From Candidatus Pacebacteria bacterium UBA6180 (GTDB lineage Bacteria; Patescibacteriota; Microgenomatia; UBA1400; PJMF01): a DNA stretch of 64,000 nt. Shown piece by piece: positions 5,515 to 60,637 of this stretch. The translations under genes were made by a program, and so were the position numbers. Under the pieces are notes generated by a model. It did not search any database, had not been told where the DNA came from, and was given only the letters and a program-made list of their open reading frames with translations. The stretch is taken from positions 56,595 through 120,594 of the forward strand of contig DITQ01000010.1 of the NCBI GenBank assembly GCA_002422165.1, read 5' to 3'. Position 1 is the stretch's first letter. Each line of letters starts with the position of its first letter.

Positions 5515-5533
5515 TTTTTGACTTGTCCTACGC

Positions 5534-5670: not shown

Positions 5671-5775
5671 TTTTCGGACCCTCCTTTTTTGAGAAACAAA
5701 AAAGGAGCAGGTACGAAAAATGCAAAGCGAATTTCGGACCCTTTGGTCACGAAAGACGCAACGGGTTTTCGGAAA
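5671..5775 (+). repeat. Tandem ~32-bp imperfect-palindrome repeats (locus A): GGTACGAAAaATGCAAaGCGAATTTCGGACCC x2, plus a partial half-site and a 10-bp-stem hairpin at 5683-5708
   Basis: Unit 1 (5710-5741) differs at only 2 of 32 positions from the reverse complement of the unit at 59184-59215. Unit 2 (5744-5775) is a degenerate copy. The half-site ttttcggaccc lies at 5671-5682. Each unit has half-sites GGTaCGAAA and TTTCGgACC around a 13-nt spacer. Confidence 0.75.
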
Positions 5776-6397: not shown

Positions 6398-7292
6398 ACT
6401 TTTTAATGCAAGCAGAATTCAAGTCGAGCAGCAAGCTCGTATTCAACGCCGCGAAACCCTGCGAGATATTCTCAGAGAAATTTCTTTGCTCATTGTTAAC
6501 ACAGGTAATGATGCTAAGGCTCTAGCAGCTCTTCAACTTGCACAGGCACTTGTAGATCCAGAGCTATCTGTGATAAATGGTAATGTTTTGCAACTTCCTT
6601 CAAAGAAAGATGAGCCAGCAACAGTGCGCGCTGAGGATGTGGCCAGATACAAGGCAGAAACTGCTCGACATGAATATATAGAGGAATATTTTCCAGAACT
6701 AAAAATTTTGCTTACTGCTGTTCAAATTGCTTTACGTAATGATAATGATCAGCTTTTACAGCAACTTATGATCAGTATCACCAATCTTTTGCATGGCAAA
6801 GTGTTTGTGGGAAAAGATGTCAACGCTTTTGTTAATGGAGTGCAGCACCACAAGTTGGAGCGTCGTTATGGTGTAATTTTACCTGAATTCGCTTATGAGG
6901 AACTGCGACGAGATCTATATGAAACCTATGTTTTTCCCGAAAATGGAGTGATAAAAGTTACCTGGGAAATTGCTTCTGTTTACATTAATGGTAAAACTAG
7001 GGGGGCTGTTGATTGGGTGGAGGTCGTTTCCTTACCACTTGATAGAGAATTGGTAGATCATTATTTAGCCAAAGCAGTCCAGGACGGAAAAGTTCTAAGC
7101 TCAAACACTCATATTGCGGCCTTTGAAATGCTTTGCGAACATACGGAACGAATGCTAAGCATCGCCTTGGTATCCAAAGAAATGCTTCAGCAGGGTTATA
7201 CAATTGCTCACTTTCGCCAGTCTCCCAAGCCAGAGTTGCTCGCTGCTGCCAAAAAATCTATTAAAACCAATGTGTCGGTTTACGTGCAATAA
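6387..7292 (+). CDS. Hypothetical protein, translationally coupled to the upstream PRTase (GTG start overlapping by 11 nt)
   Basis: The 301-aa product has no motif I recognise. It is a same-strand overlap. Confidence 0.45.
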   Translation: MSVELFNASRIQVEQQARIQRRETLRDILREISLLIVNTGNDAKALAALQLAQALVDPELSVINGNVLQLPSKKDEPATVRAEDVARYKAETARHEYIEEYFPELKILLTAVQIALRNDNDQLLQQLMISITNLLHGKVFVGKDVNAFVNGVQHHKLERRYGVILPEFAYEELRRDLYETYVFPENGVIKVTWEIASVYINGKTRGAVDWVEVVSLPLDRELVDHYLAKAVQDGKVLSSNTHIAAFEMLCEHTERMLSIALVSKEMLQQGYTIAHFRQSPKPELLAAAKKSIKTNVSVYVQ

Positions 7293-14952: not shown

Positions 14953-15513
14953 ATGTCTGGTCACAGTAAATGGAACAACATCAAAAATCGTAAGGGCGCC
15001 CAGGACAAGCTCAAAAGCAAAGTCTTTAGTCAGCTGTCTCGCCTGATTAGGGCGGCTGCTCGTCAAGGCAATTCTGGCGATCCCAAGAGCAACCCGAGCT
15101 TGCGTCTGATTCTCGATAAAGCACGCTTAGCCAACATGCCCAAGGATAAAGTTCAAAAAGCCATCGATGTCGGCTTGGGTAAAAATGACGGTAAACAGAT
15201 TCAAGAGATAGTTTATGAAGCTTTTGGTCCTGGTGGTACAGGAATGATGATCGTCGCTCTCGCTGACAACGTCAACCGCAGCAGCTCAGAAATTCGTTTC
15301 ATTCTAAGCAAATTTGGCGCCTCCCTCGGTTCTCCTGGTTCAGCCAAGTACATGTTTAGTCGCAATGACGAAGGCGAATTTGTTGCTACTATGAAACTTG
15401 AGTTGAGTGGGGAAGATCAGTCAAAAATGCTTGAATTAATGGACAGTTTGCGGGAGAACGAAGATGTGGAGGATGTTTTTGTTGCTTGCGACCTCCTCGA
15501 TTCGTTAGATTAA
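14953..15513 (+). CDS. YebC/PmpR-family transcriptional regulator (short form)
   Basis: The N-terminal MSGHSKWNNIKNRKGAQD is the YebC/TACO1 signature. At 186 aa it is shorter than typical. Confidence 0.7.
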   Translation: MSGHSKWNNIKNRKGAQDKLKSKVFSQLSRLIRAAARQGNSGDPKSNPSLRLILDKARLANMPKDKVQKAIDVGLGKNDGKQIQEIVYEAFGPGGTGMMIVALADNVNRSSSEIRFILSKFGASLGSPGSAKYMFSRNDEGEFVATMKLELSGEDQSKMLELMDSLRENEDVEDVFVACDLLDSLD

Positions 15514-18224: not shown

Positions 18225-19172
18225 ATGCAATCACCAAAACACAACAGAACTAACCCTGATCTCGCCTTGATCGACTTTTTGGAATCCCTTGAAGTCGAAA
18301 AAAACCTGAGCCGATTAACTATTCGTAACTACGGTCACTATTTGCGCCGTTTTAACGAGTGGTTTAAGGATCAGGGCTACAAAGATCTCAAAGAATTGGA
18401 CCGAGAAATTCTGCGCAAATACCGGATTTTTCTTGCTCGCTACAGTGACGAAATGTCAAGAACCCTATCAAAAAAGACACAAAGCTATCATGTGATCGCC
18501 TTGCGTTCTTGGTTTAAGTGGCTGACCAAAAATGACCAAGAAGTCATGCATCCGGAAAAAATTGACTTGCCTAAAGGTGAATCAACCCACATGCAGTTTG
18601 TCAACGTCGAAGAAATTGAGCGCCTGCTGTCGCAGCCAGAGCTTTCAAGTAAGGAAGGTCTTCGTGATAAGGCTATTTTGGAACTACTCTTCTCTACTGG
18701 TTTGCGGGTTAGCGAATTGGTGGGCCTCAACCGCGACCAGATTGACCTAGGCCGGCGCGAATTTGGTGTGATCGGCAAGGGTCGCCGGCCACGAGTAGTT
18801 TTTCTAAGCGAGCGAGCAGCTACCTGGCTGCAGCGCTATCTGGTTTCCAGAGAGGATAATTGGCGACCAATTTTCGTTCGTCACTCTGGTAAAAAACCTG
18901 ATCCTCTGATGGATGGCGATGAGATGCGCTTGACCACTCGCAGTATTCAGCGTCTAGTCGACCATTATGCTCGGCAGGCGCGCCTGACAGTCAAATTGAG
19001 TCCGCACGGCATCCGTCATAGTTTCGCCACGGATTTGCTAATCAATGGTGCAGGCTTGCGCGATGTCCAGGAGATGCTTGGGCACAAAAACATTGCCACG
19101 ACGCAGATTTACACCCATGTTACTCAGCCACAGCTTAAGAAGGTCTACGATGAAACCCACTCGAAGATGTAG
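18225..19172 (+). CDS. xerD: Tyrosine recombinase XerC/XerD family
   Basis: An N-terminal core-binding domain is present. The C-terminal HGIRHSFATDLL...LGHKNIATTQIYTHV carries the R-H-R-Y catalytic signature. Confidence 0.8.
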   Translation: MQSPKHNRTNPDLALIDFLESLEVEKNLSRLTIRNYGHYLRRFNEWFKDQGYKDLKELDREILRKYRIFLARYSDEMSRTLSKKTQSYHVIALRSWFKWLTKNDQEVMHPEKIDLPKGESTHMQFVNVEEIERLLSQPELSSKEGLRDKAILELLFSTGLRVSELVGLNRDQIDLGRREFGVIGKGRRPRVVFLSERAATWLQRYLVSREDNWRPIFVRHSGKKPDPLMDGDEMRLTTRSIQRLVDHYARQARLTVKLSPHGIRHSFATDLLINGAGLRDVQEMLGHKNIATTQIYTHVTQPQLKKVYDETHSKM

Positions 19173-19249: not shown

Positions 19250-19323
19250 GGGCCGGTAGCTCAGTTGGCTAGAGCGCTTCTATGGCATAGAAGAGGTCAG
19301 GGGTTCAAGTCCCCTTCGGTCCA
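19250..19323 (+). tRNA. tRNA-Ala (anticodon GGC)
   Basis: The acceptor stem gggccgg / tcggtcc includes a G3:U70 pair. The anticodon loop atGGCat reads GGC. A GGTTCAAGTCC T-arm is present. CCA is not encoded. Confidence 0.85.
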
Positions 19324-19326
19324 CAC

Positions 19327-35325: not shown

Positions 35326-35874
35326 TTAATTTCTTGTTACCACGCCACTACCAAAATCCAGACTACTCGTTCTTGGGTTGTTCTCTATTTCGTCAGAACC
35401 AACTTTTAAATTAAAGTTGACTTCAATGTATTTTTTTCCCTCTTCTGTCGGGTAACAAGTAAAGAGTAAGTTTTGAACATAATCTGTACTTAGACTGCTG
35501 CCTTCAGTCAAGTAATATTTGCCATTTGCAGATATAGAGGCGATGCGATCATCTTCTTCACGGATAATAGTTTCCAAATCATCGCTGCCGATAATAGATA
35601 TGTAGTCAAGTTGAGTTTCACTCTCGCAGGGTGAAGTGATTTCGTTTGCGTTGCGCAGCATGTCAATGATCTGACGAGTAGCGTTGCCACCGGACTCACG
35701 CAAGTTTTGACTGATACGGCTTTTGTATGCGGTGGCCAGGAAAGTGATAAAAAGGCTGCTGATGGCTAAAAGTAGCAAAGCTGTGACGCCAGTGGTGATA
35801 AGCAGCTCAAGTAAAGTAAAGGCGCGCTGAGAGATGGTGGAAAATAAAGTGGTTTTCGAAGCAGATCGAGACAT
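35326..35874 (-). CDS. Pseudopilin-like protein
   Basis: SQRA|FTLLELLITTGVTALLLLAISS is a prepilin-like motif with Ala at -1. It is the first gene of a divergent minus-strand block. Confidence 0.6.
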   Translation of the reverse strand: MSRSASKTTLFSTISQRAFTLLELLITTGVTALLLLAISSLFITFLATAYKSRISQNLRESGGNATRQIIDMLRNANEITSPCESETQLDYISIIGSDDLETIIREEDDRIASISANGKYYLTEGSSLSTDYVQNLLFTCYPTEEGKKYIEVNFNLKVGSDEIENNPRTSSLDFGSGVVTRN

Positions 35875-35935
35875 AGATAAATTCGTAGTTGATTTTTGCT
35901 ACATGCCCACTATTTTTTTGCAACTTTTTAATTGC

Positions 35936-37732
35936 CTACTGTGTGATTAACCGTGGATTGATTTCGCGCCAATTGCTAGTACTAGCCTTGAGTTTGACTG
36001 GCCAGTTGAATAGTAGATCGGAACGATAGATGAAATTTTCGATCGCTTGGTTGTTATTGAGAATGGGGCCAAGATTTCCATCATCAAATGTACGGTTGAG
36101 AGTGACGCCGCCCCAGCCAACGAAGGTGCCAGCCCCGATGAACTTGCGATCAGGAGGAACTTCGCCGATGTCGGTTTTGCTTTGCAGGATTAGGCTATCA
36201 TTGGCGATGAAAACACCTTCTAAATTGCTGTTCGCTATAGCAACCACAGGCACTGTAGGCGTATTAGGATCGAGCTCATAGCCGATATTTGGTGTAATCC
36301 AGATGTCACCGCTAGCGATGAAGGCCAGGAAGCCTCCGTTGGCAACGCTTGTGATTTTGCGATTAGTGTCTCCAGGATTGCTGTCATCGAAGGTCAAGCG
36401 GCCGTCGACAAAGACGACCAGCTGTTGGCCACTAGACAGAAAGAAACCTTGGCTTTCATCAATGCTGACATTGCCATTGATTTTGACATAGTTAACCTCA
36501 TCAGGTTGCCACCAGGGGGCAGAAGTAAAGTCACTGAGTAGAGGTTCCAGGTCTTCACCATTACCTATAGTGATAGCACTGTTTTCAGCTAGTCGGTAGA
36601 AATAGTCATAGGAAAGCGGTGCCAAATCAGTACGTAGAGCATAGGCATTACGGTTTTCAGGTCGAGATGTCAAATGAAGGTAAGAGTGATAGGCGCTACT
36701 GACGTTGCTGGTTTGAACGCGGCTTGGATCACTACTCGTGATAATCGTAAAGCCGCTGCTGAGAGGATTACTGCTGTTGCTGGGCAAGTTTAGGGCTGGT
36801 TGGCAGCCAGGATCGCCAGCACAAAAACTTTCGGGGATGGTGCTGGCGACTAAGTTGCTGGCAAAGAGATTGCCGCCGAAAACTTGAAACCAAGAAGTAT
36901 TGGAGAGACTGTATTCTCTTAGGTAAAAATTGACTCCTGCTAGTGGTGGATAAACGCCTGAGTAGCGACAGAGATAGGGGTCAGTGACACTGATTGGCGC
37001 AGGACAGGAACAAACGTAATTGGTTCCAACCTGATTGGTAAGATCTAGAGTAACGGTGTAACCAGTGCCCGTCATGACATTGGAGATGCTGTAGTTACTA
37101 GGATTAGCGAAGCTAAAGGTGGCATCCTGGGTGGTTTGGCTCGGGGCCGACGCACGCAGGGTAATGTTTGATAAGTTATTGATCGGGGAAGCGCTGGCCT
37201 GGGTGCAATAAGCGCCACTGAGGGCAGCAGAAAGGTCGGTTTGAATTGAGCCCTGTATGAGACTGACAGTTGGGGTAGGTGTAGGTGTAGGTGTGCCTGT
37301 CGGGGGAGGTGTGCCTGTCGGGGGAGGTGTGCTACCACCACTTCCATCATCTTGCGGAGGCTCACAGTTACAGAGGACGTCGGCTTCCTCGTATATGCAG
37401 TTGCCACCAACCTCCGAGCAGTCACTGCATCGAACTTCATTACAACAAACTCCAGAGACAGGGTAAAAATTATTTGGATCGCTTGGGTCAGTGCAAGCAC
37501 CGCTGTCAAAGCACTCATAAGTTGCACATTGAGCCGGAGCTGGAGGTGGATTACTTGGGCAATTCGCATCACTTGAATAATTTAAGGTATGGGAATAAAT
37601 AACCGTTTGGGTACCGCAGTAGCCGCTACATTCACCCCAGACGGTGTCGTTGCATGCTGCTAAAGCTTGATTATTTGTAGTTAATAAAATTAGAAATAAT
37701 ACGGTAGTAATTATGGTTGATTTTAATCGCAT
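35936..37732 (-). CDS. Large secreted protein: signal peptide, ~100-aa Cys-rich module, Pro/Thr linker, ~430-aa C-terminal domain (candidate pilus-associated adhesin)
   Basis: Signal peptide is MRLKSTIITTVLFLILLTTNNQALA. At least 16 Cys occur in the first 110 mature residues. The PPPTGTPPPTGTPTPTPTPT linker is encoded by tandem nucleotide repeats at 37257-37340. Confidence 0.6.
   Translation of the reverse strand: MRLKSTIITTVLFLILLTTNNQALAACNDTVWGECSGYCGTQTVIYSHTLNYSSDANCPSNPPPAPAQCATYECFDSGACTDPSDPNNFYPVSGVCCNEVRCSDCSEVGGNCIYEEADVLCNCEPPQDDGSGGSTPPPTGTPPPTGTPTPTPTPTVSLIQGSIQTDLSAALSGAYCTQASASPINNLSNITLRASAPSQTTQDATFSFANPSNYSISNVMTGTGYTVTLDLTNQVGTNYVCSCPAPISVTDPYLCRYSGVYPPLAGVNFYLREYSLSNTSWFQVFGGNLFASNLVASTIPESFCAGDPGCQPALNLPSNSSNPLSSGFTIITSSDPSRVQTSNVSSAYHSYLHLTSRPENRNAYALRTDLAPLSYDYFYRLAENSAITIGNGEDLEPLLSDFTSAPWWQPDEVNYVKINGNVSIDESQGFFLSSGQQLVVFVDGRLTFDDSNPGDTNRKITSVANGGFLAFIASGDIWITPNIGYELDPNTPTVPVVAIANSNLEGVFIANDSLILQSKTDIGEVPPDRKFIGAGTFVGWGGVTLNRTFDDGNLGPILNNNQAIENFIYRSDLLFNWPVKLKASTSNWREINPRLITQ
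37257..37340. repeat. Coding tandem repeats (6-bp ggtgta x3 and 21-bp cctgtcgggggaggtgtg-containing unit x2) encoding the PT linker
   Basis: gtaggtgtaggtgtaggtgtgcctgtcgggggaggtgtgcctgtcgggggaggtgtgct is visible directly in the sequence. Confidence 0.8.
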
Positions 37733-38307
37733 AGATCAGTAACAATAATTTTCTTCACATAGTTGGTTCTAGCTTGATCAAAATCTTCAGTGAGCTGGAC
37801 TAAGAGAAAATTTAGTTGATTGCTTTTTTCGACGAAGTCAGTGAAACTAATGATTTTTTCTCCAGGAACAAACAAGGTTGCTCCATCCTTGACTGGAATT
37901 CGCAGGTTCTTCAGAGAATAACTTTTGCCAGTGTTGAGATCGGTATATGTTTCTGGCACACAGTAAACGCTTTGGCTAGGAGATAACTTTAGATCAACAG
38001 GTTCAAACAAACTACTCTGGGTAAAAGCGATAGCAGCCCTAATATTTAAGGTTTGTGAAGTCTCATCGTAGAAGTTGAAATAACCCTTCATTAAGGAATG
38101 GTTATTTAAGCCATCAGTGTTGTTAGATTTGATAACTTTAGAGGGGTTGATGCCTTTAGAATCAAGCGCAGTTTTTTCCCACTGACCAGTGAATTGGTTA
38201 TAGAAATCGCCTTCTATTTTATTACTTTGCTTGTTTTGGTAAAGGTAGTAATAAATGGCAAAAAAAGCCAAGGAAACGAGTAGTAAAACCAACCATGTTT
38301 TTTTCAC
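37723..38307 (-). CDS. N-terminally anchored hypothetical protein
   Basis: An N-terminal TM helix is MKKTWLVLLLVSLAFFAIYYYL. Length is 194 aa, with an 8-nt overlap with the upstream gene. Confidence 0.45.
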   Translation of the reverse strand: MKKTWLVLLLVSLAFFAIYYYLYQNKQSNKIEGDFYNQFTGQWEKTALDSKGINPSKVIKSNNTDGLNNHSLMKGYFNFYDETSQTLNIRAAIAFTQSSLFEPVDLKLSPSQSVYCVPETYTDLNTGKSYSLKNLRIPVKDGATLFVPGEKIISFTDFVEKSNQLNFLLVQLTEDFDQARTNYVKKIIVTDLCD

Positions 38308-38351
38308 CTACTTAGTTTAGCACGATAGCGAAAGTTAAAGCAATTATATGA

Positions 38352-39974
38352 TTAGTTACCGGCTTCTAATACTAGCACTTTTGCTTCTAAAAGGGGTAAT
38401 TTATTGTTAACTTGGTTTCCAGTAATGACATTGTGAGTTTGACTTGATGGAGCTAGCCCCTCATAGTCAGTGGTTGGTTCTTTTCCGTCTGATTTGGGGT
38501 AGGATTGAGCAAATTCTGCTTTTTGATCCACTTCGTACATTACGTAGTACAATCTATTTATTTTGAGTGCTTTATAAAAATCGCTGATTTCCCTGATTTT
38601 TCCAAGGTTGGCAGCTTTGAAGTTGTCTCCATACAGATTAGGGGCTCCAGTTATCAATACTGTTGTAACTGAAAAGGGATCGCTTTCATTGATTACAAAT
38701 CCCATCAAGGTGCCAGCTACGCCAAAACCAGGAATATTTATTTCTCCAATCTCTTTTCCCAAAAAGAAAGTTGGAACCATGTTAACTTGTTTTCCGTATG
38801 CTTTATGTAAATATTCAGGATTAGTCAAGCCTTGAAGATTTGGGTCTGTTACCCACTGAGGATCAACTTTCTCTCCGGCCGGCCAAGGGAAATTGTCAAA
38901 ATTACCGAACATAATATTTTGCGAGCCTTCAATTCTAATCCACGATCCTTTATAGAAAACATGGGTGTACCCCTCGTTATCAACTACTCTTGGAAGAGTA
39001 TTGTCGATGGTTCGTTGTTCGGCGGAAGTGCCGTCGCTGACCGGCTTAAAATCTAGGGTAACAGGGTCGATATAAAATTTGTCACCATTTCTATCTGTAA
39101 AAATAATTGGGTTAGAACCTCTTCTCGCGTCCTTTTCTTTGTCCAGGGCAATGCTAAAGGTCTTGCGTTGTTCAAAGCTAAGAGAGCTGACATCAACGCT
39201 GCCTCCCTCCATAGCTTCATCTACCAATTTTTGGATTATTTCTGCTTCGCTTAGCACAACCACTTCAACTGTTGGAGAGGGTGGCTGAGTGGGAGCCTCC
39301 GCGGTCACAATCGGATCTTCCTGTGGTGGTGGCGGAGTCAAGCTGGGGTCAACTTCTCCTGGGAAGTTAGGAGCGCTTGCTTGGTTGGGATCAACATCAG
39401 CTTTGGGGGCAGAAAGTCCGCAGGCTAATTGCATCGCACCCAGAATTACAATTAAAGTTAAGCCTGCGTAAACGCCTTTAGGCATTGCGTAGAGTACTCT
39501 GTCAAATAATTCGGCAAAAGATGTAAATGGTTTTTTAAGTTCTTCCAGTAAATAACGTCGCATCAGAGCAGCTAATTCTGCCTCATTTTTTGGTGTGGAT
39601 TTTGATTCAACGGCAATGTTTTTGGCTTGTCGTTTGAGTTCTGCTACACGACTTCTAATTTGTTGCCAATTAGCTTGTAATGCTGCAGCAACTTCTATTG
39701 GCAAGTTCTTCTCGCTGATATCGAGAATTTGTTCATTTAATAAATAATTAAGTTGAAGAGCACGGGCGGTATCAATGGTTTGTTCTAAACCTTTTAGCTG
39801 TCTTTTCTTGGTTTTTCTAGCAAAAGCTTTTTTTCCAGACTCAAGAACTGAAGCTACTGTGGCCTGCTGAGGACTAAAGGGTTCGTGTTTATCTCTGTCG
39901 CCGCGAAGTTGTGAGCGAAAATTAATTTCTGCTCGCCTTTTCGAATCACTATTATGTAGTTCTTTTCTCCCCAT
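38352..39974 (-). CDS. Bitopic membrane protein with Pro-rich spacer and large extracytoplasmic domain (hypothetical)
   Basis: A ~190-aa cytoplasmic coiled-coil-like N-terminus is followed by a TM helix GLTLIVILGAMQLAC. A PPPPQEDPIVTAEAPTQPPSPT linker and a ~300-aa domain follow. Confidence 0.5.
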   Translation of the reverse strand: MGRKELHNSDSKRRAEINFRSQLRGDRDKHEPFSPQQATVASVLESGKKAFARKTKKRQLKGLEQTIDTARALQLNYLLNEQILDISEKNLPIEVAAALQANWQQIRSRVAELKRQAKNIAVESKSTPKNEAELAALMRRYLLEELKKPFTSFAELFDRVLYAMPKGVYAGLTLIVILGAMQLACGLSAPKADVDPNQASAPNFPGEVDPSLTPPPPQEDPIVTAEAPTQPPSPTVEVVVLSEAEIIQKLVDEAMEGGSVDVSSLSFEQRKTFSIALDKEKDARRGSNPIIFTDRNGDKFYIDPVTLDFKPVSDGTSAEQRTIDNTLPRVVDNEGYTHVFYKGSWIRIEGSQNIMFGNFDNFPWPAGEKVDPQWVTDPNLQGLTNPEYLHKAYGKQVNMVPTFFLGKEIGEINIPGFGVAGTLMGFVINESDPFSVTTVLITGAPNLYGDNFKAANLGKIREISDFYKALKINRLYYVMYEVDQKAEFAQSYPKSDGKEPTTDYEGLAPSSQTHNVITGNQVNNKLPLLEAKVLVLEAGN

Positions 39975-43365: not shown

Positions 43366-43623
43366 TTGCTTGTAAATCAAAATAACACTATGAAAAGCTT
43401 ACTTGAATTCATCTTACTTCGCATGGTCGAACACCCAGAAGATCTAAAGATTGATGAGGTTCAAGAAATGGGTCTGACTATTTACAAACTTAAGCTTCAT
43501 CCTGATGATGTTGGTCGCGTGATTGGTCGCTCTGGCAACGCCATTAAAGCTATTCGCAAACTCGCCAGTGTGCGTGCGGTAAAAGAACGCTTGCGCGTGA
43601 GAGTGGTTTTGCAGGAAGACTAA
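43366..43623 (+). CDS. KH-domain RNA-binding protein (YlqC/UPF0109 family)
   Basis: The VGRVIGRSGNAIKAIR GXXG KH motif is present. Synteny after rpsP is conserved. An alternative start exists at 43390. Confidence 0.75.
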   Translation: MLVNQNNTMKSLLEFILLRMVEHPEDLKIDEVQEMGLTIYKLKLHPDDVGRVIGRSGNAIKAIRKLASVRAVKERLRVRVVLQED

Positions 43624-44465
43624 AGCTCTTCTTCAGTTTCATTTATTCTACTCAGTTCATCAGCTGGTTCTACAGATGCATTTAGGCTTTGTTCTAACTC
43701 TTCAACGCTCAGGTTTCCAATTCCAAATAAATTGCCGCGGTCACCGCGGATAACCTGGTCTTGAAGCTGCAGATCTCCCGGGATTAGTTGGTTGATGTTA
43801 TCGAGAATTTTGCGCTCTGCCAAGGTAATGTCAGGTAAGGGATTGGTGATAGTGGTGCGAATGGATTGGGTGAAATAAAAACTGCGCAAGACCAGATCAG
43901 CCTGAGCAATAGCGTTGCGATCTTGCTCAATATTGCGATTAATTGAGATGCTGGTAATAGTGCTGATTGGAGTAACTTGTTCTATTAGACTCATAAACTC
44001 CTGAATGCGCCAAAGTGGACCACTGACGCTAAAATCTAAATCGAGAAAATCATAGCTTGTAGTGTTGCTGCTGCGGCGTACTTGAGTGGAATCAGTGGCA
44101 ATTTCACCAGGATTGAGGCTGAAGTTTTTGATCACCACCTCTGTGGTGTTGGCAACTTTGTTAAGATTATTGAGAATTTCTAAAAGTGGTTTGTGAGAAG
44201 GCAAAACTTTATTGATATCAGAAGCCTGGTTGAAATTGGGGTCGATGGCTAGCTGTTTGAGTTGTTCTGCCTTATTATAAAATTTGGCTAGCTCTAGTTC
44301 ACGCTCATTAAGTTTATTTAAGTCAGTCAAAATTGGAGTAATTTGTTGGATCACGCCAATTAATAAAACTAGTCCAGCGAGGATGAAAAAAAGTACTCCT
44401 AAGACTAATTCCTTACGAGTGTTCCAAAATAAGCGCCAGTTTACTTCGGTTTTATTTTCAATCAT
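43620..44465 (-). CDS. PilO-like type IV pilus assembly protein (bitopic)
   Basis: An N-terminal TM helix and a coiled-coil precede the periplasmic domain. It sits downstream of pilM and pilN on the same strand with overlapping ends. Confidence 0.45.
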   Translation of the reverse strand: MIENKTEVNWRLFWNTRKELVLGVLFFILAGLVLLIGVIQQITPILTDLNKLNERELELAKFYNKAEQLKQLAIDPNFNQASDINKVLPSHKPLLEILNNLNKVANTTEVVIKNFSLNPGEIATDSTQVRRSSNTTSYDFLDLDFSVSGPLWRIQEFMSLIEQVTPISTITSISINRNIEQDRNAIAQADLVLRSFYFTQSIRTTITNPLPDITLAERKILDNINQLIPGDLQLQDQVIRGDRGNLFGIGNLSVEELEQSLNASVEPADELSRINETEEEL

Positions 44466-45018
44466 TTTTTTTGAGTTCTAATTTGAGAGTCAGTTTATAG
44501 CTACCATTGTCTGCTCTAGACAAAGTATTTTTTTCGATGTCATGATATTGCCCTCGTAATTTTTCGCTATCTAGAATTTGGTTGACTTCTCTGAATTTGA
44601 AGATATTTTCGCTGCTTAATTGCAACACCAACCCACCCTGCTCTTCCTGGTAGCTCATGCCGACAATTTCAGCTTTTTCAGCAAAAGTTTCAGAGAAGTA
44701 GTTCATTGCAGCCTGCTTATCACTACGTTTTTGATAAATTTCACTGATGGCTCGAATTTTATTGACAAAAATTAAATAATTAAGCTCGACATTTTCTTGG
44801 GCGAGAATGCTTGCTCGATATTCCTTGATTTTGTTTTCGGTAGTATTAATGCGCAAATTATTAAACAATTTAAAACCAAAAACCCCAATCATGAGTAGGC
44901 AAGCTACTCCCAATACATAGCTGCTTAAGCGAAAAATGCGAACATCTTGCTCTTTTTGCTTGCTTTTTTGTTTAACACGGTTGGCTAAAAAATTGATGTT
45001 GATCATGAGTTTTGCCAT
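44458..45018 (-). CDS. pilN: PilN-like type IV pilus assembly protein
   Basis: The N-terminal ININFLANR resembles the PilN INLLP motif. A single TM helix is present. Length is 186 aa. Confidence 0.55.
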   Translation of the reverse strand: MAKLMININFLANRVKQKSKQKEQDVRIFRLSSYVLGVACLLMIGVFGFKLFNNLRINTTENKIKEYRASILAQENVELNYLIFVNKIRAISEIYQKRSDKQAAMNYFSETFAEKAEIVGMSYQEEQGGLVLQLSSENIFKFREVNQILDSEKLRGQYHDIEKNTLSRADNGSYKLTLKLELKKND

Positions 45019-45022
45019 TAAG

Positions 45023-46030
45023 CTAGAGCTGTCTAGTGATTAGGCCCATGCAAACGCTATAGCTAGCTTGATTGAGTTCTGGAACTTGGCCTTTGGCTTT
45101 GGCGAAAGGAGCTGCTATCAACACTTCCACTCCCAAATTTTGACTGATTTTTTCGACCAAACCCTTTAGTTGAGCTGGCCCACCAGCTAAAGCAATGCGC
45201 TTAATTTTTTGTTCAGGGTGATTTTGGTTAAAAAAGCGCATCGTTTTTTGCAAATCAATGATTAGGTTGTTAATAATTGGGTCAATGACTTGGTATAGCT
45301 TGCCTTCCATTTGATTGGGATCGAGACCATAGTTAATTTTGTATTCTTCTGCCTGTTTAAGGTCGAGATTGAAACTTTGGCTAATAGCAGCGTCAATTAG
45401 TGAGCTGCCAGTTTTAGAATTAAAAACGAACTCGAACATATTATTGGCAACCACAGCGATGTCGTTGCTACTGGAGCCCATTTGGACAATGATGGTCTCA
45501 GGATCATTGGCTTCTATATCTAGCGAGCGAATGACAGAAAAAATTTGGGTTTCAAGAAGGGTTGCTTCGATGCCAATGTTGAGAAAAACATTATTGATTT
45601 TTTCAACCAGGGATTTACGCGATCCAACTAGCAAAACTTTCATTGTTGCATTAACTGCTTTTTTATTGGGTTTTTCTAGAACTTGATACTGCAAGATAAG
45701 GTCATTTTTGGGGATGGGGATGGACTGTTCAGCTTGCCAGCCAATCGCTGAAGCCAGCTCAGCATCACTAAGGACAGGCACATCAATCACTTTACTAGTG
45801 ACTAGATATTCAGGCAAACTAAGTCTGACGTCGCTTTGATCGAGCTTGTAGTCGTGGAAAAGGTTGCTAATTAGCTCAGCGAACTGCAGTGCTTCTTGGT
45901 CGCTTTTGGGAGCGACTAATCCTAATTTATTTTTGATTTCTACAGCTTTATTAATCGCTTGACTTCTGCTGTCTTTAGCAACAACGATCTTAATCGTGTG
46001 GGTGCCGATGTCTAGGGCAGTTATTGACAT
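45023..46030 (-). CDS. pilM: Type IV pilus assembly protein PilM (actin-like ATPase fold)
   Basis: The N-terminal ITALDIGTHTIKIVV matches the PilM/FtsA-like phosphate-1 motif. Length is 335 aa. Confidence 0.7.
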   Translation of the reverse strand: MSITALDIGTHTIKIVVAKDSRSQAINKAVEIKNKLGLVAPKSDQEALQFAELISNLFHDYKLDQSDVRLSLPEYLVTSKVIDVPVLSDAELASAIGWQAEQSIPIPKNDLILQYQVLEKPNKKAVNATMKVLLVGSRKSLVEKINNVFLNIGIEATLLETQIFSVIRSLDIEANDPETIIVQMGSSSNDIAVVANNMFEFVFNSKTGSSLIDAAISQSFNLDLKQAEEYKINYGLDPNQMEGKLYQVIDPIINNLIIDLQKTMRFFNQNHPEQKIKRIALAGGPAQLKGLVEKISQNLGVEVLIAAPFAKAKGQVPELNQASYSVCMGLITRQL

Positions 46031-46040
46031 ATTTATAGTT

Positions 46041-46838
46041 TTATTTTGCTAAACTTCCTCCGCTAACTAGGGCAAAATCCATAAAAGCCGGGGCGGCAGG
46101 AATTGACCTTTTAACCTCGATGGCTTTGGAGCTAGAACCATCTGGCATCTGAGCCATCGACAAAATCGTGTATTGGGCGCTGGCTAGTAGGTTGCTGCTG
46201 CCACTCAAGTGAAGATCGGTGCCCTGGTCAAGTGGTAGGATGCGTAAAAAAGCTCCTTGGTTATTACTGCCGTCAATGCCGATGGTGTATTGAAATTGGT
46301 AAAGATCTTCTGTGGAGGCTGTTGCGCTAAGTAGGTTCTGGTCACTTTGGCTAGCACAGTTGCCAACCATATAATAATTAACATCCGTCGCGCCACCACT
46401 AAGGAAGTAATGACCAATTAGAAGGTTGGCCGCTCCCTGATCACAAGCACTTTGAGACCAGTGTAGAGTTAGATTGCCAGTTTGTGTGTCGCTAATGCGC
46501 ACTTCCAGCGCTGTTTTTTCTGGCACAAAACCAGTGAATTCATCAGCAGAGCTAATACTGACCTGGTTAAAGTTGGCATCTTCAAAGGAAAATTCAGCAG
46601 GCAATTGGATATTTTGATCGCTTTCGAATTGAAAAATGTTGCCGAGAGCTTGTTGGATTCCTGATTCGGCAGTACTAAAAACGCGAGCAGTGTCCTCTTG
46701 TGCGATATTACTTTGACTTTCTCTGATGGTGCGGTTGGCGATGGAAAGGCCAATCACCAAGATGATGGCTGAAATTAGTAGGACAATTACCCCAACTTGC
46801 CCATCTTGACTGGAACTAAAAGCAATGTGTTTCTGCAT
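46041..46838 (-). CDS. Membrane-anchored hypothetical protein at the head of the pilMNO cluster
   Basis: An N-terminal hydrophobic helix is VGVIVLLISAIILVIGLSIA. Length is 265 aa. It is pilus-associated by context only. Confidence 0.4.
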   Translation of the reverse strand: MQKHIAFSSSQDGQVGVIVLLISAIILVIGLSIANRTIRESQSNIAQEDTARVFSTAESGIQQALGNIFQFESDQNIQLPAEFSFEDANFNQVSISSADEFTGFVPEKTALEVRISDTQTGNLTLHWSQSACDQGAANLLIGHYFLSGGATDVNYYMVGNCASQSDQNLLSATASTEDLYQFQYTIGIDGSNNQGAFLRILPLDQGTDLHLSGSSNLLASAQYTILSMAQMPDGSSSKAIEVKRSIPAAPAFMDFALVSGGSLAK

Positions 46839-58527: not shown

Positions 58528-59157
58528 CTATTTTTTCTTGCCAATTGGGTCGATTTGTGCTTGTAGCTTCTTGCCAAGCAGTTTTGGCTCGATGCCTACT
58601 TTGCCCAAATCTTCATTTTCTTTAAAAATCCTGTTAATGACCTCGAAGCCGAGATCTTTGCGGACAATTTGACGACCCTTGAAGGTTAATGTCAATTTGA
58701 CCTTGTTGCCCTTTTCCAAAAAGTCTCTAACCTTACGGTTGCGAGCTTCGAAATCTGCTTCGCCCATGAAGGGGGTGAAGCGCAGCTCCTTGAGTTCCAG
58801 AGTCTTGGACTTTTTGCGCGTATCAGCCGTCTTTTTCTTGAGCTGATACTTGTATTTTGAAAGTTCAATAATCTTAACGACCGGCGGGTTAGCCTTCTCA
58901 GTGACTAAGACCAGGTCACTTTCTAACTCCATGGCTTTGGCCAGGGCCTCGTTGGAAGACATCTCTCCCAAGGATTCCCCAGACTCGCTTAGAACATACA
59001 CTTTGGGAAAACGAACCTGATGATTCGCCTTCACATATATTTGTTCGCTTCTATTTTTGTTGTATTTTTTTCTAATCACAAAAGATCGTTTATTATATAC
59101 CAATTGTTTAAAAATCTCGACGAGAGGAATTATAACCGATGAAGGCTGTTGTAGCAA
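58528..59157 (-). CDS. infC: Translation initiation factor IF-3 (true start uncertain, possibly a non-AUG start downstream of 59157)
   Basis: The C-terminal VKEIKFRPF-like ELRFTPFMGEADFEARNRKVRDFLEKGNKVKLTLTFKGRQI matches the IF3 C-domain. Synteny is infC-rpmI-rplT. Confidence 0.8.
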   Translation of the reverse strand: MLQQPSSVIIPLVEIFKQLVYNKRSFVIRKKYNKNRSEQIYVKANHQVRFPKVYVLSESGESLGEMSSNEALAKAMELESDLVLVTEKANPPVVKIIELSKYKYQLKKKTADTRKKSKTLELKELRFTPFMGEADFEARNRKVRDFLEKGNKVKLTLTFKGRQIVRKDLGFEVINRIFKENEDLGKVGIEPKLLGKKLQAQIDPIGKKK

Positions 59158-59183
59158 TTAGAGCTTGCGTTGCAAAAAGCGTG

Positions 59184-59290
59184 AGGGTCCGAAATTCGCG
59201 TTGCATCTTTCGTACCAAAAGGTCCGAAATTCGCGTTGCATCTTTCGTACCAGCTGCTTTTTGCCTTGCAAAAAGACAGGGTCCGAAATA
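59184..59290 (+). repeat. Tandem ~32-bp imperfect-palindrome repeats (locus B): GGGTCCGAAATTCGCGTTGCATCTTTCGTACC x2 plus partial third copy
   Basis: Near-identical units lie at 59184-59215 and 59220-59250. A partial gggtccgaaat sits at 59278-59288. The reverse complement matches locus A (5710-5741) at 30 of 32 positions. Confidence 0.8.
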
Positions 59291-59311
59291 TAATCACCAG
59301 TTGTTGTGAGT

Positions 59312-59386
59312 CGAGCTTGTAGCTCAGTTGGTTAGAGCGCTTCGTTGACATCGAAGAGGTCAGAGGTTCGAGTCCTCTCAAGCTCA
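59312..59386 (+). tRNA. tRNA-Val (anticodon GAC)
   Basis: The acceptor stem gagcttg / caagctc is perfect. The D-arm is tagctcagttggttagagc. The anticodon loop ttGACat reads GAC. A GGTTCGAGTCC T-arm is present. Confidence 0.85.
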
Positions 59387-59421
59387 CGATTTTTCAAACC
59401 AGTAATATAAAAAATAATAAA

Positions 59422-59646
59422 ATGACAGAGCAAAATATCGTAGGTTCACCACATCGATTAACTTCAGAGGAAGAGGCTGTTTGCGCATCTCGGGTATATG
59501 ACCAAGAATATTTAAATAAAATTGCTATTTTAGCCAATGAAAGAGGTATACCTGCAAATGTAATAGCAAGGGTTGTTTTATCAATGAAGCGAAACGCTTC
59601 AACTCCACATCGCTGGAGAGACTCGAGTTCTATGAAGGGAGTTTAA
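59422..59646 (+). CDS. Small hypothetical protein (74 aa)
   Basis: It lies immediately 3' of tRNA-Val. No motif I recognise is present. Confidence 0.3.
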   Translation: MTEQNIVGSPHRLTSEEEAVCASRVYDQEYLNKIAILANERGIPANVIARVVLSMKRNASTPHRWRDSSSMKGV

Positions 59647-59734
59647 ACTAATTTCTTTGGCAATTTTCACCCCATGGGAAACTCAATGGTTTTCAGCTCC
59701 AACTATATCAAATTATATCCAAATATGGTATAAT

Positions 59735-59743
59735 ATAGGCTGT
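59735..59743 (+). promoter_or_regulatory. Extended -10 promoter (TGgTATAAT) about 130 nt upstream of the GC-rich membrane-protein gene; strong RBS AAGGAGG at 59864-59870
   Basis: tggtataat is visible. aaggagg lies 6 nt before the ATG at 59876. Confidence 0.45.
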
Positions 59744-59875
59744 TCTTTCGAAACTGTGGCGATCGCTGCCACTTGGTTTGCGTGAGCAAATCTTCGGAGG
59801 AACGATCTTTAATAAAAATCATCATCCAGGCTCGCGGAGCTTGGAGGTGATTAGACAAACGCATAAGGAGGCGTT

Positions 59876-60637
59876 ATGAGCGGAAAGAGGTTTTTCATTG
59901 GGCTGAGTGCAATTGTAATCTCGCTCGCCCTGGGAGGCATCATGACCTCCCTCACCCGTGATCCGCGGTGGATTGAAATTCCACTGTGGCTCTACGGCGC
60001 CACCCTAGCACTGCTAGTGGTCTGGGGTCTTTACAGGCTATACCAGACAAAGGGGCCGGGGGTGGTGATTTTTGGAGGGATGGGAGTAGGCAGCATCGTT
60101 GCTTGCCTGCTACTGTCATACTTAGGGGGAATGTTCACGAGGTGGGGTTCCACGGTCAACGTGGCCAGCTCCCTTGGTGGATACCAAGGCAGCTGGTGGG
60201 AGTACATCGGTACTCCTGGCTTCATCTACTTGGGATTCCTGGCCGCCGCCTTTGTCACCATCTGGGTGACGGGGGCAAGCCGTTGGCTCCCAACCCTAAT
60301 TTTGGCTGGCGCCAGCTTTGCAGGCGCCCTCTATCTAGGTCAGGTAGAGGTGTTTTGGAAGGCGGCCGCTGGCGGCGCAATTAGCGTCGTCATCGGAACA
60401 GCCCTCGACCTAGGGCTGGTGAAGAAACCCTCCGCCAGCAGCGGCTTGACAGCCGTTGCTTTCGGTGCCATTGCCCACTCGATCATTTATCTGGTCGTGG
60501 GGGCGTTGCTCGCTCAGATTACTCTGAGCGTGGGGTTCTTCAATCCGTCTGCTGGGCAGACGGTCATCGCCGGCTTCCTCGCCGGTGCTGGTGTAACCAG
60601 CATGGTGAGGAACTACATTTTTTTGAGGGGGGTTTAA
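59876..60637 (+). CDS. Gly/Ala-rich polytopic membrane protein encoded by a markedly GC-richer segment (hypothetical, likely horizontally acquired)
   Basis: The 253-aa product has about seven TM helices and GxxxG-rich stretches. By eye its nucleotide composition is much more GC-rich than flanking genes. Confidence 0.55.
   Translation: MSGKRFFIGLSAIVISLALGGIMTSLTRDPRWIEIPLWLYGATLALLVVWGLYRLYQTKGPGVVIFGGMGVGSIVACLLLSYLGGMFTRWGSTVNVASSLGGYQGSWWEYIGTPGFIYLGFLAAAFVTIWVTGASRWLPTLILAGASFAGALYLGQVEVFWKAAAGGAISVVIGTALDLGLVKKPSASSGLTAVAFGAIAHSIIYLVVGALLAQITLSVGFFNPSAGQTVIAGFLAGAGVTSMVRNYIFLRGV

Follow-up and report, generated by a model that had tools for sequence, protein, structure and literature searches.

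A palindromic array between infC and a tRNA-Val gene in a Patescibacteria genome: a probable portable promoter cassette embedded in a hairpin

An array of palindromic repeats lies between the divergently oriented infC gene and a gene for tRNA-Val in a 64,000-nt stretch of DNA (the window) from Candidatus Pacebacteria bacterium UBA6180. An earlier note on this DNA had placed the repeats there with the same flanking genes, and we found them as it described. The infC gene has a conserved GTG-ATT start region and is followed by rpmI and rplT. The features of this locus (locus B) and of a second locus in the window (locus A) are as follows.

58528-59079, minus strand: infC (IF-3), the divergent neighbor, with Pfam domains IF3_N and IF3_C and 183-aa homologs
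59129-59157, minus strand: predicted infC promoter (TTGCTA, 17 nt, TATAAT), from a promoter scan; conserved in relatives with and without the array
59165-59194, plus strand: truncated distal unit, from sequence reading and an nhmmer match (59165-59195 to model positions 23-51)
59186-59217, plus strand: short unit 1, composed of right arm (59186-59194), linker TTCGCGTTGCATC (59195-59207) and left arm TTTCGTACC (59208-59216)
59221-59252, plus strand: short unit 2, identical to unit 1, composed of right arm (59221-59229), linker (59230-59242) and left arm (59243-59251)
59243-59288, plus strand: terminal long imperfect palindrome (nhmmer match 59239-59289, E=1e-19; predicted fold; family covariation)
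59266-59294, plus strand: predicted sigma-70-type promoter of tRNA-Val (promoter scan, 10 of 12 matches; geometry repeated at 22 modules)
59313-59387, plus strand: tRNA-Val, anticodon GAC (ARAGORN; Rfam tRNA, 74 bits)
5671-5775, minus strand: locus A, with this architecture in degenerate form (sequence comparison; nhmmer; orthologous sites)

The two 32-nt imperfect palindromes reported earlier at 59186-59217 and 59221-59252 are indeed 100% identical (GGTCCGAAATTCGCGTTGCATCTTTCGTACCA), with a start-to-start distance of 35 nt. The third partial copy was also recovered, as AGGGTCCGAAAT at 59278-59289 (arm proper 59280-59288), and it is the right arm of the terminal palindrome. The location assigned to the array was correct, but its extent (59184-59290) was not, as the array runs from the truncated unit to TATAAT (59165-59294). 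Nor was the GC-rich islet that had been thought to border it evident: GC content is 0.43-0.48 over the array and tRNA, and the sole stretch above 0.55 (59900-60100) is within a membrane-protein ORF approximately 600 nt away.

The arms of each unit, GGTCCGAAA and TTTCGTACC, are complementary at 8 of 9 positions, and a second hairpin could be formed by left arm 1 and right arm 2 over an AAAA loop (59217-59220). The terminal palindrome is composed of left arm TTTCGTACC, an AG bulge, the core CTGCTTTTTGC-CTT-GCAAAAAG-A-CAG (59254-59279) and right arm GGTCCGAAA (59280-59288). The truncated distal unit corresponds to the right half of the A/T-rich core (TTGCAAAAAG) followed by CGTGAG and right arm GGTCCGAAA (59186-59194), and its edge is only 8 bp from the infC -35. 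When the window was searched with the 32-mer at up to 3 mismatches (0.00 matches expected by chance per window), the only other match was in locus A (5709-5740, minus strand). The 9-nt arm GGTNCGAAA occurs 9 times in the window versus 2.1 expected, and 8 of these 9 occurrences are within loci A and B. A regulon of solitary arms was considered and rejected, since the single occurrence outside the two loci in 64 kb is at chance level. A 20-nt direct repeat (D3; 59148-59167 and 59300-59319) was also seen. It was rejected as a duplication footprint, being mostly infC promoter sequence that is conserved also in element-free relatives; the remainder, 7 nt (GAGCTTG, 59161-59167) equal to the first 7 nt of tRNA-Val, is all that could be a footprint and is therefore too weak for use.

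The predicted promoter consists of a -35 element TTGCAA (59266-59271), a 17-nt spacer that is itself the third repeat arm, and a -10 element TATAAT (59289-59294). The TATAAT end of the array points at tRNA-Val, which starts 18 nt past the -10, and transcription would start near 59301. A terminator scan of 59160-59300 found none; the stems lead into TATAAT or the linker, and as no U-tract stands behind them the hairpin is not a canonical terminator. Rfam searches yielded only tRNAs for the whole window at the gathering score and for 20 related loci, and only tRNAs and chance-level matches for loci A and B at E up to 10. Our literature search found no published description of such an element, and it has no Rfam family.

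The earlier note proposed that the palindromic sites add a transcriptional layer to the infC operon. Palindromic, transcription-related DNA was a correct reading, but the array is polar, with its TATAAT end toward tRNA-Val, and infC has a conserved promoter of its own. A second candidate infC promoter is TCGAGA-17-TATAAT (59120-59092). The infC promoter is kept in all compared relatives at 80-97% IF-3 identity, both where the array is present (L026) and where it is absent (L024 and L036). Comparison of orthologous infC spacers, the check suggested at the time, revealed that the repeat is missing in the syntenic loci L023-L025 (80% IF-3 identity), L036 (85%) and L035 (54%). In the tRNA-Val/infC spacer the element is present in the window and L026 and absent in L023-L025, L035 and L036.

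Elsewhere, the same element, as a cassette of ~55 nt, CATC-TTTCGTACC-AG-CTGCTTTTTG-loop-CAAAAAG-A-CAG-GGTCCGAAA-TATAAT, is repeated in related Patescibacteria genomes of ~0.7-0.85 Mb, often with 1-5 additional upstream units. In 14 of 22 cassettes ending GGTC[CT]GAAATATAAT, a tRNA gene starts 11-20 nt past the -10, and the tRNA loci served are five: Val, Leu, Arg, Gln and a Thr-Tyr-Thr cluster. In another 6 of the 22, an ORF starts 3-11 nt past the -10, so that these ORFs would be leaderless; at two unrelated ORFs the ATG is exactly 7 nt past TATAAT, which fits leaderless mRNAs. The four ORFs served are unrelated (YebC/TACO1, NAD-dependent epimerase, class II aminoacyl-tRNA synthetase and a protein of unknown function). 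Single genomes carry the cassette in several contexts: Thr, Arg and Gln in Ga0075855_11, and Thr and aminoacyl-tRNA synthetase in Ga0228535_1000003. Copies at different loci gave nhmmer E values of 1e-12 to 1e-19, and 20 distinct units could be aligned with a mean column identity of 82%, variable loops included.

It should be noted that the metagenome scan pattern contained TATAAT, and therefore the share of copies in promoter context is overestimated. The genome scan used the internal junction without TATAAT and yielded 4 complete arrays, all 4 ending in TATAAT; three are ahead of tRNA genes and one is ahead of an unidentified stretch of ~110 nt (L006), which had no Rfam match. The copies at locus A, L033 and L010 are in non-promoter contexts and face either nothing or a gene's 3' end. 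About half of the contexts have a co-oriented gene whose end is 2-40 nt ahead of the element. Two scans of viral contigs and blastn against phage and plasmid records gave no cassette match.

At orthologous loci, the cassette is about 94-100% identical, versus 45-75% for the 150-nt upstream flanks; the leader, tRNA and downstream region together are 81-88% identical. Across the 20 distinct units, pairing was observed in 94% of cells, versus 35-55% in slid controls, and one stem position was unpaired in all 20. Two-sided changes occurred in four pairs (14 cells), a level reached in none of 500 shuffles, and this covariation may reflect only ~4-5 independent events. In one L006 array, a G-C pair of one unit is A-T in the unit next to it, both arms having changed in step. 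Matched changes could also arise without selection, by arm-to-arm template switching in quasi-palindromes. Because conservation is combined with compensatory changes, these alignments show that the whole palindrome is strongly constrained as a predicted paired structure, beyond the -35 and -10 elements.

The number of units varies. L005 and L012 differ despite flanks of 100% identity; the number is also different between L013 and both L009 and L011; and L026 differs from L027 although IF-3 is the same. These counts may be collapsed in short-read assemblies, and contigs L002, L028 and L029 break within the array; the array accounts for short-read contig breaks at this spot. L012 is on the L009 contig, and the L009 Thr locus matches L008 and L013; the 751-kb contig of L013 also encodes an IF-3 that is 80% identical to that of the window. 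Short units (junctions AAAA, GCTT, ACAT, GCAG and AGAC) are always upstream and are gene-proximal in no array. The A/T core with the -35 is kept in every gene-proximal unit and lost in distal units only. Locus A, in turn, is built of two short units and a long palindrome, whose core (CTCCTTTTTT/AAAAAAGGAG) is compensated, together with a right arm; its -35 and -10 are lost (TCTCAA and AAATAA). The point of insertion has a terminator-like T-run on one side and, on the other, the ribosome-binding site of a phosphoribosyltransferase gene, and the number of units there is 0 in L032, 1 in L033 and 3 in the window. Gain and loss, and a tie to the tRNA gene, had also been suspected earlier, and the presence or absence of the element among relatives bears this out. 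Insertion boundaries and a target duplication were not callable from empty and filled sites, which are too diverged: when L024 was aligned with L026 and the window, the L024 -10 region fitted two competing registers. The left end has TA ahead of it in 8 contexts, and the TA after ...GAAA at the right end belongs to TATAAT.

We compared the cassette with several known systems. Putative mobile promoters (PMPs; Matus-Garcia, Nijveen and van Passel, 2012) are homologous sequences of 50-100 nt with at least 80% identity upstream of non-homologous genes, and their families differ in frequency between close strains, some being spread over genera (PMC3488235). In protein-coding contexts the cassette resembles PMPs in each of these points, with 82% mean column identity over at least 50 nt, and its downstream genes are non-homologous (five tRNA loci and four ORFs). 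However, PMPs are purely statistical and have no defined anatomy, whereas the cassette has a palindromic architecture and tandem upstream units; it also serves mostly tRNA genes, which are outside the PMP pipeline, and its hosts are uncultivated Patescibacteria.

The REP/BIME, REPIN, BOX and Correia families are short imperfect palindromes in intergenic DNA with presence/absence polymorphism. Pneumococcal BOX elements are modular, A-B(n)-C, with a variable number of internal units; REPIN hairpins are kept via compensatory change; and Neisseria Correia elements can provide outward promoters and insert hairpins into transcripts. We know of no sequence relationship between the cassette and these families, and the comparison is by description only. 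The short unit, with 31-32 nt and 8/9 pairing, resembles the 20-40-nt extragenic imperfect palindromes of the REP/REPIN type, but the units of every array are direct repeats in one orientation rather than inverted or alternating copies, and no Y1 transposase of the RAYT type was found among window ORFs with Pfam matches. Terminal inverted repeats, as in MITEs and Correia elements, were not found either: at the left end TGCACAGCATC stands before the left arm and the right end is the bare right arm, so the inverted arms are not both terminal. The cassette differs from palindromic repeats also in its apparently low copy number (2 loci in 64 kb) and its polarity, with a full predicted -35/17/-10 at one end.

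The rrn P1 and tRNA promoters of E. coli have in common with the cassette a strong near-consensus promoter (predicted here) directly before tRNA genes, as well as repeated conserved sequence and A/T tracts at about -40 to -150. Upstream, however, the cassette has a pairing-constrained palindrome and tandem copies in place of the UP DNA and protein sites of rrn P1, and we know of no Fis-like factor in these organisms. The Bacillus PurBox and the CtsR, LexA, CIRCE, parS and dif sites, as far as we know them, gave no match by eye.

TIGR stem-loop arrays are known from candidate-phyla-radiation bacteria and contain variable spacer pairs, box C (CUU or CCA) and box D (UG), with an adjacent tas gene (Faure et al. 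2025, PMC12045711; Xu et al. 2026, bioRxiv 10.64898/2026.09.09.750476). The host group is the same, and so are tandem units of ~35-55 nt with stems, two 9-10-nt segments and a short linker. In contrast to variable spacers, the 9-nt arms of the cassette are mutually complementary and invariant within arrays and between genomes. CTT-N10-TG occurs around the left arm only, on the top strand, and around the right arm on neither strand. Further, the array is upstream of a predicted promoter and is not a transcribed array beside a tas gene. No Nop-domain (tas) match was found in the window, where the neighbors are infC, tRNA-Val, a 74-aa ORF, a membrane protein (59876-60637) and a GH130-family gene; neither the membrane protein nor the uncharacterized neighbor at 6387-7292 had sequence relatives in the PDB. 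A TIGR-Tas array was therefore rejected, as three defining features (variable spacers, boxes on both sides and a tas gene) are absent.

Based on the above, we consider it probable that the array is a portable hairpin-embedded promoter cassette which is reused before tRNA and leaderless genes and which most likely drives tRNA-Val. Promoter activity is predicted here in a phylum whose promoters are uncharacterized. An unlikely, though not negligible, alternative is a selfish miniature repeat (non-autonomous or self-propagating, REPIN-, BOX- or Correia-like), in which the hairpin would serve propagation and the promoter-like end would be incidental and of no gain to the host; tRNA-Val would simply happen to adjoin an insertion. 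Such a repeat would explain the presence/absence polymorphism at two orthologous sites, the copies ahead of non-homologous genes and those in non-promoter contexts at locus A, L033 and L010, the sub-variants common to different loci and genomes (e.g., the A-T arm variant in L006 and L026), and the hairpin that compensatory change has preserved even in the decayed copy at locus A. The boundaries, consistently TA|TGCACAGCATC on the left and ...GAAA|TA on the right, also resemble a TA target duplication. However, orthologous copies are far more conserved than their flanks, which points to host-level purifying selection or continuing homogenisation and not to neutral decay. The ends are not mutual inverted repeats, the left one having an additional linker of 11-13 nt, and neither a transposase nor an HUH-type or REP-associated transposase was detected among window ORFs with Pfam matches. 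The element was not found in viral contigs or in phage and plasmid records, and loss of the -35-bearing core in distal units only also counts against such a repeat. Mobility at the tRNA gene itself, i.e., repeats left by site-specific integration at tRNA-Val, as the earlier note offered as its second option, is extremely improbable. The array does adjoin a tRNA gene, the element is present or absent among relatives, and GAGCTTG at the distal edge matches the tRNA-Val start over 7 nt. Yet integrases normally target and duplicate the 3' part of a tRNA, whereas these repeats are on its 5' side and, beyond those 7 nt, contain no tRNA-derived sequence; a 3' direct repeat of the tRNA bounding foreign DNA was not found. 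No integrase or foreign gene block is adjacent (the neighbors are infC and small ORFs), viral, phage and plasmid collections contain no similar sequence, and the same cassette also precedes protein genes.

Two other explanations retain a role in gene expression and assign it to bound protein or to RNA. The 9-nt arms (GGTNCGAAA, in both orientations) might be half-sites of a repressor or activator acting on tRNA-Val and possibly on the divergent infC operon. No part of the element is better conserved than the arms; one arm is in the spacer between -35 and -10, so that a protein bound to it would block RNA polymerase; and the distal edge approaches the infC -35 to within 8 bp. Fis sites occur at E. 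coli rRNA and tRNA promoters, and several sites upstream of a stable-RNA promoter are reminiscent of them. We nevertheless regard such an operator array as rather improbable. The distance between paired arms ranges from 4-6 nt to 28-33 nt and the promoter-proximal loop varies by up to 7 nt, a poor fit to a rigid dimer; the matched double substitutions in both arms of one L006 unit, next to a neighboring unit of the original sequence, fit base pairing and not a fixed protein specificity. No solitary arms were found at other promoters in 64 kb, and the infC promoter (L024 and L036) and synteny (L024, L035 and L036) persist without the array. An RNA-level element, transcribed as the infC 5' leader from an antisense start farther upstream or as the 3' end of upstream genes, with hairpins that attenuate, process or stabilize the transcript or even form a TIGR-type guide array, is very unlikely. 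Consistent with it, a weak minus-strand promoter-like sequence (TCGACT-16-TATATT, 59314-59287) would transcribe the array toward infC, the predicted fold of the minus-strand RNA has an energy of -40.5 kcal/mol (z = -2.2), co-oriented genes end 2-40 nt ahead in about half of the contexts, the element at locus A is within the mRNA leader of the phosphoribosyltransferase gene, and the window has a gene for RNase III; the array is also like stem-loop TIGR units in its period of 35 nt, its two arms of 9 nt, its linker of 13 nt and its flanking half-stems. Against this, L026 does not conserve the minus-strand -35, which falls within the tRNA leader and gene, conserved infC promoters are located downstream of the array, and the hairpins have no U-tract after them. 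Single-unit cassettes occur in divergent intergenic regions with no incoming transcript (L018 and the window), the arms, boxes and absence of a Nop-domain gene do not agree with TIGR, and Rfam matches were zero. We take the cassette to be neither an infC operator nor an integration scar.

Members of this family may be viewed as portable hairpin-embedded promoter cassettes carried by a clade of Patescibacteria (candidate phyla radiation) with small genomes. Their basic unit consists of a 13-nt linker ending in ...GCATC plus an imperfect palindrome of ~45 nt, in which an A/T-rich core hairpin separates left arm TTTCGTACC from right arm GGTCCGAAA. In the gene-nearest copy, the right half of the palindrome provides the predicted -35 (TTGCAA) and the 17-nt spacer, and TATAAT comes next. 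Transcription by RNA polymerase carrying the housekeeping sigma factor would begin ~7 nt downstream of TATAAT, leaving a tRNA-Val precursor leader of probably ~11 nt in the window. The two 32-nt units are upstream tandem copies whose A/T core has shrunk to a 4-nt loop; because the deleted core includes the -35, they cannot themselves be promoters. They probably arose via duplication or slippage, and the comparison of strains shows that their number changes fast. The palindrome, as a hairpin or cruciform, would set or insulate promoter activity, possibly by absorbing or sensing negative supercoiling or by blocking and stabilizing transcripts arriving from upstream. The cassette appears to have been copied to non-homologous genes, and comparison reveals its gain and loss at orthologous sites, with infC presumably a mere neighbor that has its own promoter.

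An extension of this proposal, to which we assign a low probability, is a structure-dependent promoter switch of Patescibacteria, in which the imperfect hairpin is extruded or recognized by a dedicated factor, tRNA and translation genes are under global control and the hairpin doubles as a copying handle. The obligatory unpaired pyrimidine-pyrimidine position and the fixed bulges could be features of such a hairpin, and the factor could be a structure-specific protein or else a Tas repressor, RNA-guided and nuclease-dead, with 2 x 9-nt targeting that would fit the two 9-nt arms.

Almost no candidate-phyla-radiation bacteria are in culture, and to our knowledge their promoters and gene regulation are for this reason essentially uncharted. 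For the window, the comparison removes a tempting but mistaken inference on infC regulation. More generally, TTGCAAAAAGACAGGGTCCGAAATATAAT together with the upstream palindrome is a strongly conserved candidate for a strong native promoter of tRNA genes and apparently leaderless mRNAs, and is of direct use for annotation, for the reading of metatranscriptomes and for genetic tools. The family offers a clean natural case of one predicted promoter that recurs at unrelated genes and, at orthologous sites, comes and goes. The pairing constraint, as judged from the alignments, extends far past the polymerase contacts and points to a possible structural layer of control.

The array between infC (58528–59079, minus strand) and tRNA-Val(GAC), locus B, is built on a 32-nt unit, GGTCCGAAATTCGCGTTGCATCTTTCGTACCA. 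A repeat finder and reading of 58600–59900 gave two identical copies, 59186–59217 and 59221–59252, 35 nt apart, and a third copy (59278–59289) that has only the first 12 nt. When up to three mismatches were allowed, 0.00 matches were expected in shuffled windows, and the sole other match (5709–5740, minus strand) was in locus A, a second copy of the array. Thus, the two near-identical units and third partial unit of the earlier note are present far above chance, and the neighbors it named, infC and tRNA-Val, were confirmed by domain matches and by the tRNA at 59313–59387. The unit is an imperfect palindrome (GGTCCGAAA versus TTTCGTACC, complementary at 8 of 9 positions), and the generic arm GGTNCGAAA occurred 9 times against 2.1 expected, 8 of these within loci A and B. 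The array extends further than had been described, however, starting earlier with a truncated unit and ending in TATAAT (59289–59294). The GC-rich islet said to border it was not found: array GC is 0.43–0.48, and values over 0.55 occur only at 59900–60100, within a membrane-protein ORF. Below, distal means away from the served gene.

Features of locus B and its surroundings
infC (IF3_N and IF3_C domains), rpmI, rplT and pheS, minus strand
59120–59092, minus strand, infC promoter-like site TCGAGA-17-TATAAT, on the infC side of the array (promoter scan)
59157–59129, minus strand, infC promoter-like site TTGCTA-17-TATAAT, on the infC side of the array (promoter scan)
59165–59195, truncated distal unit (profile search)
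Array part 1 (distal end), half core TTGCAAAAAG-CGTGAG, then right arm
Array part 2, linker TTCGCGTTGCATC
Array part 3, left arm, AAAA loop, right arm
Array part 4, second linker
Array part 5, left arm, AG, core CTGCTTTTTGC-CTT-GCAAAAAG-A-CAG, right arm
Array part 6 (tRNA end), TATAAT
59313–59387, plus strand, tRNA-Val(GAC)

On the plus strand, the promoter scan placed TTGCAA (59266–59271), a 17-nt spacer and TATAAT (59289–59294), matching the consensus at 10 of 12 positions. The arm GGTCCGAAA, which is the third "partial unit", occupies the end of this spacer, and tRNA-Val starts 18 nt past the -10. From this sequence layout we infer that the terminal long unit, a cassette of ~55 nt, acts as promoter for tRNA-Val and that transcription begins near 59301. 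Hairpins between left and right arms, including the long terminal one, are predicted for the plus strand as single-stranded DNA; a terminator scan of the window array found no U-tract after the stem. Elsewhere in the window, TTGCAGCGAAAATAGGGTAGAATATAGC (3666–3695, plus strand), 5' of tRNA-Leu(CAA), loosely resembles the promoter half of the cassette, TTGCAAAAAGACAGGGTCCGAAATATAAT, and has no left arm; it is under the nhmmer threshold and could be a decayed relative or a chance likeness. A terminator-like hairpin, GTGGCGATCGCTGCCAC (59756–59772, plus strand), which includes the palindrome GCGATCGC, lies 3' of a 74-aa ORF that follows tRNA-Val.

The earlier note had proposed that the repeats add a transcriptional layer to infC or, alternatively, are remnants of integration at the tRNA. 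Top homologues of IF-3 and of the phosphoribosyltransferase named Woesebacteria, Pacebacteria and Patescibacteria, among others, and tRNA-Val was divergent from infC in all relatives examined. Relatives with IF-3 86% identical (L026, L027) have a larger array, with two long units and three or at least four short (core-deleted) ones, and both of their arms carry a matched change (TTTCATACC / GGTCTGAAA). The contigs with 97% identical IF-3 (L028, L029) stop in element-like sequence ~125 nt before infC. Despite the same synteny, the spacer is without trace of the element in L036 (IF-3 85% identical), L023–L025 (80%) and L035 (54%), and the infC promoter block TTGC[T/G]A-17-TATAAT is kept in all relatives with 80–97% IF-3 identity. 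By this comparison, which the earlier note had proposed as its check, the element is therefore no conserved component of infC regulation. In some lineages, judging from these spacers, a different promoter region has evidently taken over in front of tRNA-Val. The integration reading is likewise unsupported as it was put. Neither the viral contigs nor the phage and plasmid records searched contained cassette-like sequence. The window itself has an ordinary chromosomal gene content, with dnaB, gyrA/B, rpsB-tsf, genes for RNase III and aminoacyl-tRNA synthetases, and a type IV pilus set.

A perfect GC palindrome, GGCGCGCG-CT-CGCGCGCC (L036:55–85), lies in the cassette-free L036 spacer between a TATAAT and tRNA-Val, which would place it in the tRNA leader. 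A tyrosine recombinase of the window (18225–19172, plus strand; Phage_integrase and N-terminal SAM-like domains, XerC/D-like) ends 78 nt before tRNA-Ala(GGC) (19250–19324) and is probably a chromosomal Xer recombinase, not a prophage integrase. Several long ORFs (182–598 aa; 35326–39974 and 43620–46838, minus strand) adjoin the type IV pilus genes (PilB/T/C, PilD, PilM, pilins) and had no Pfam match.

To search one genome per species, we used the internal junction GGTCCGAAATTCGCNTTGCAT, without TATAAT. It was found at three loci (L002, L003, L006) of a Parcubacteria-group MAG, in CP011212.1 (L005) and in a MAG titled "Pseudomonadales" (L001); a Butyrivibrio match (L004) was due to chance. The repeating unit in the true matches is usually 59 nt (arm, linker, arm, A/T-rich core hairpin). 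L002 is cut off by the contig end, and the four complete arrays all end ...TTGCAAAAAGACAGGGTC[C/T]GAAATATAAT with TATAAT, three before tRNA genes and one (L006) before a stretch of ~110 nt that had no Rfam match. A terminal-sequence scan of the metagenome collection gave 16 more loci, all necessarily with promoter-type ends as the pattern contained TATAAT; several are on contigs of 0.72–0.84 Mb, as long as entire genomes of this group. There are 22 terminal cassettes in total. At 14 of them a tRNA gene (Val, Leu-TAG, Arg-GCG, Gln-TTG or a Thr-Tyr-Thr cluster) starts 11–20 nt past the -10, and at six an ORF starts 3–11 nt past it (YebC/TACO1, NAD-dependent epimerase/dehydratase, class II aminoacyl-tRNA synthetase, and an uncharacterised protein); no target was recognisable downstream of the other two. 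The cassette is polar and recurs just before gene starts. At two unrelated genes ATG comes exactly 7 nt after TATAAT, a leaderless-mRNA look that supports TATAAT as a working -10.

One such gene is the YebC/TACO1 homologue of L016 (872–1417, minus strand) and L021; that of the window (14953–15513, plus strand) has an ordinary leader without a cassette, and by sequence comparison these orthologues illustrate the replacement of one promoter by another. Another conserved motif, CGAGGGAATGnCnGAAGTnnAGGCGGAGGACG, adjoins the distal array end at two loci that are not orthologous and belong to different genomes (L003:5063–5094, plus strand; L016:1580–1611 and L021:860–891, minus strand). In L003 a degenerate left arm lies on one side of it and a right arm on the other, and it was not present in the window. 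Because short-read contigs repeatedly break inside arrays (L002, ending at 3019; L028 and L029, ~125 nt upstream of infC; L027), unit counts from such assemblies may be wrong, and MAGs probably under-represent the element. Contigs titled "Pseudomonadales" (L001, CAZWWE010000004.1) and "candidate division TM6" (L005) have genes and flanks like those of Patescibacteria related to the window organism, and L005 has 37.6% GC versus the 28% implied by its name; these titles, with that of the IF-3 homologue P0078, are probably taxonomic mislabels.

At orthologous loci of different genomes the terminal cassette is 94.5–100% identical, compared with 45–75% for the 150 nt that precede the array, which is more conservation than a neutral repeat would keep. 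The leader, tRNA and downstream sequence are 81–88% identical, and cassette conservation extends ~30 nt past the -35. When 20 distinct long units were aligned, 94% of the cells of the proposed stem were paired. Four pairs vary on both sides (14 cells), which none of 500 shuffles matched, and sliding the partner by 1–3 columns lowered pairing to 35–55%. One column pair never pairs in the 20 units, with T facing C in all but one and C facing T in that one, and AG and A form fixed bulges. Within one array (L006), two adjacent units have G-C in one and A-T in the other, the two arms having changed to match. It should be noted that the independent covariation events are few, perhaps four or five, and that arm-to-arm template switching within a quasi-palindrome could mimic selection for pairing. 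Allowing for both, that pairing matters is well supported. Paired arms are 4–6 nt apart in short units and 28–33 nt in long ones, and the promoter-proximal loop varies by up to 7 nt; such variation speaks for a folded structure, not for a DNA-binding protein that acts as a rigid dimer.

Unit number shifts fast (L005 versus L012, whose flanks are identical; L013 versus L009/L011; L026 versus L027), and the cassette has been both gained and lost at orthologous sites. The two 32-nt units would stem from duplication followed by loss of the A/T core and hence of the -35. Core-less units are distal only, in every array, with deletion junctions that differ by lineage, which fits selection retaining the core just where it is the -35. 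The weakest step is that the palindrome, as hairpin or cruciform, might tune or insulate the promoter. In about half of the contexts a co-oriented upstream gene ends 2–40 nt before the element, where the hairpin might in addition cap or stop transcripts coming in; the remaining contexts, the array of the window included, are divergent.

Locus A (5671–5775, minus strand) has the same part order. Its core is altered on both sides (CTCCTTTTTT/AAAAAAGGAG) with pairing retained, whereas the -35 and -10 have decayed and now read TCTCAA and AAATAA. In L032 nothing occupies the orthologous site, and in L033 it has one inverted unit, the same story as in the tRNA-Val/infC spacer. Beside it, a conserved structured leader or small RNA (5547–5680, plus strand; also L032:2380–2482 and L033:2310–2410), AAGAGTGCGAAAAGACG...GGGGACACCAAG...GGGCGTCTTTTTTT, lies between a TTGATT-17-TATAAT promoter (5511–5539) and the phosphoribosyltransferase gene. 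It has an internal hairpin that covaries among relatives and a terminator-like T-run at its 3' end. Rfam gave no match to it even when E-values up to 10 were allowed, so this may be a riboswitch or attenuator of a new kind.

No Rfam family matched the element, and literature searches with the arm sequence, or with Patescibacteria plus palindromic and promoter terms, gave no description of it. REP/REPIN, BOX and Correia elements are alike in form, but their defining features, where tested, are absent: the units are repeated directly instead of in inverted orientation, and the element does not end in terminal inverted repeats. TIGR stem-loop arrays occur in the same host group with a similar unit size; membership was ruled out by invariant "spacers", missing box motifs and the lack of a nearby tas gene. 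Putative mobile promoters were defined by at least 80% identity over 50–100 nt upstream of non-homologous genes (PMC3488235), and the cassette family fits this operational definition. The best explanation is that a portable hairpin-promoter cassette drives tRNA-Val, with truncated tandem copies upstream. Promoter assignment and family description, taken together, seem to us fairly probable on sequence grounds; any particular role of the hairpin is much less so. The cassette would be akin both to propagated promoters and to small palindromic repeats, in a group whose promoters are otherwise unknown.
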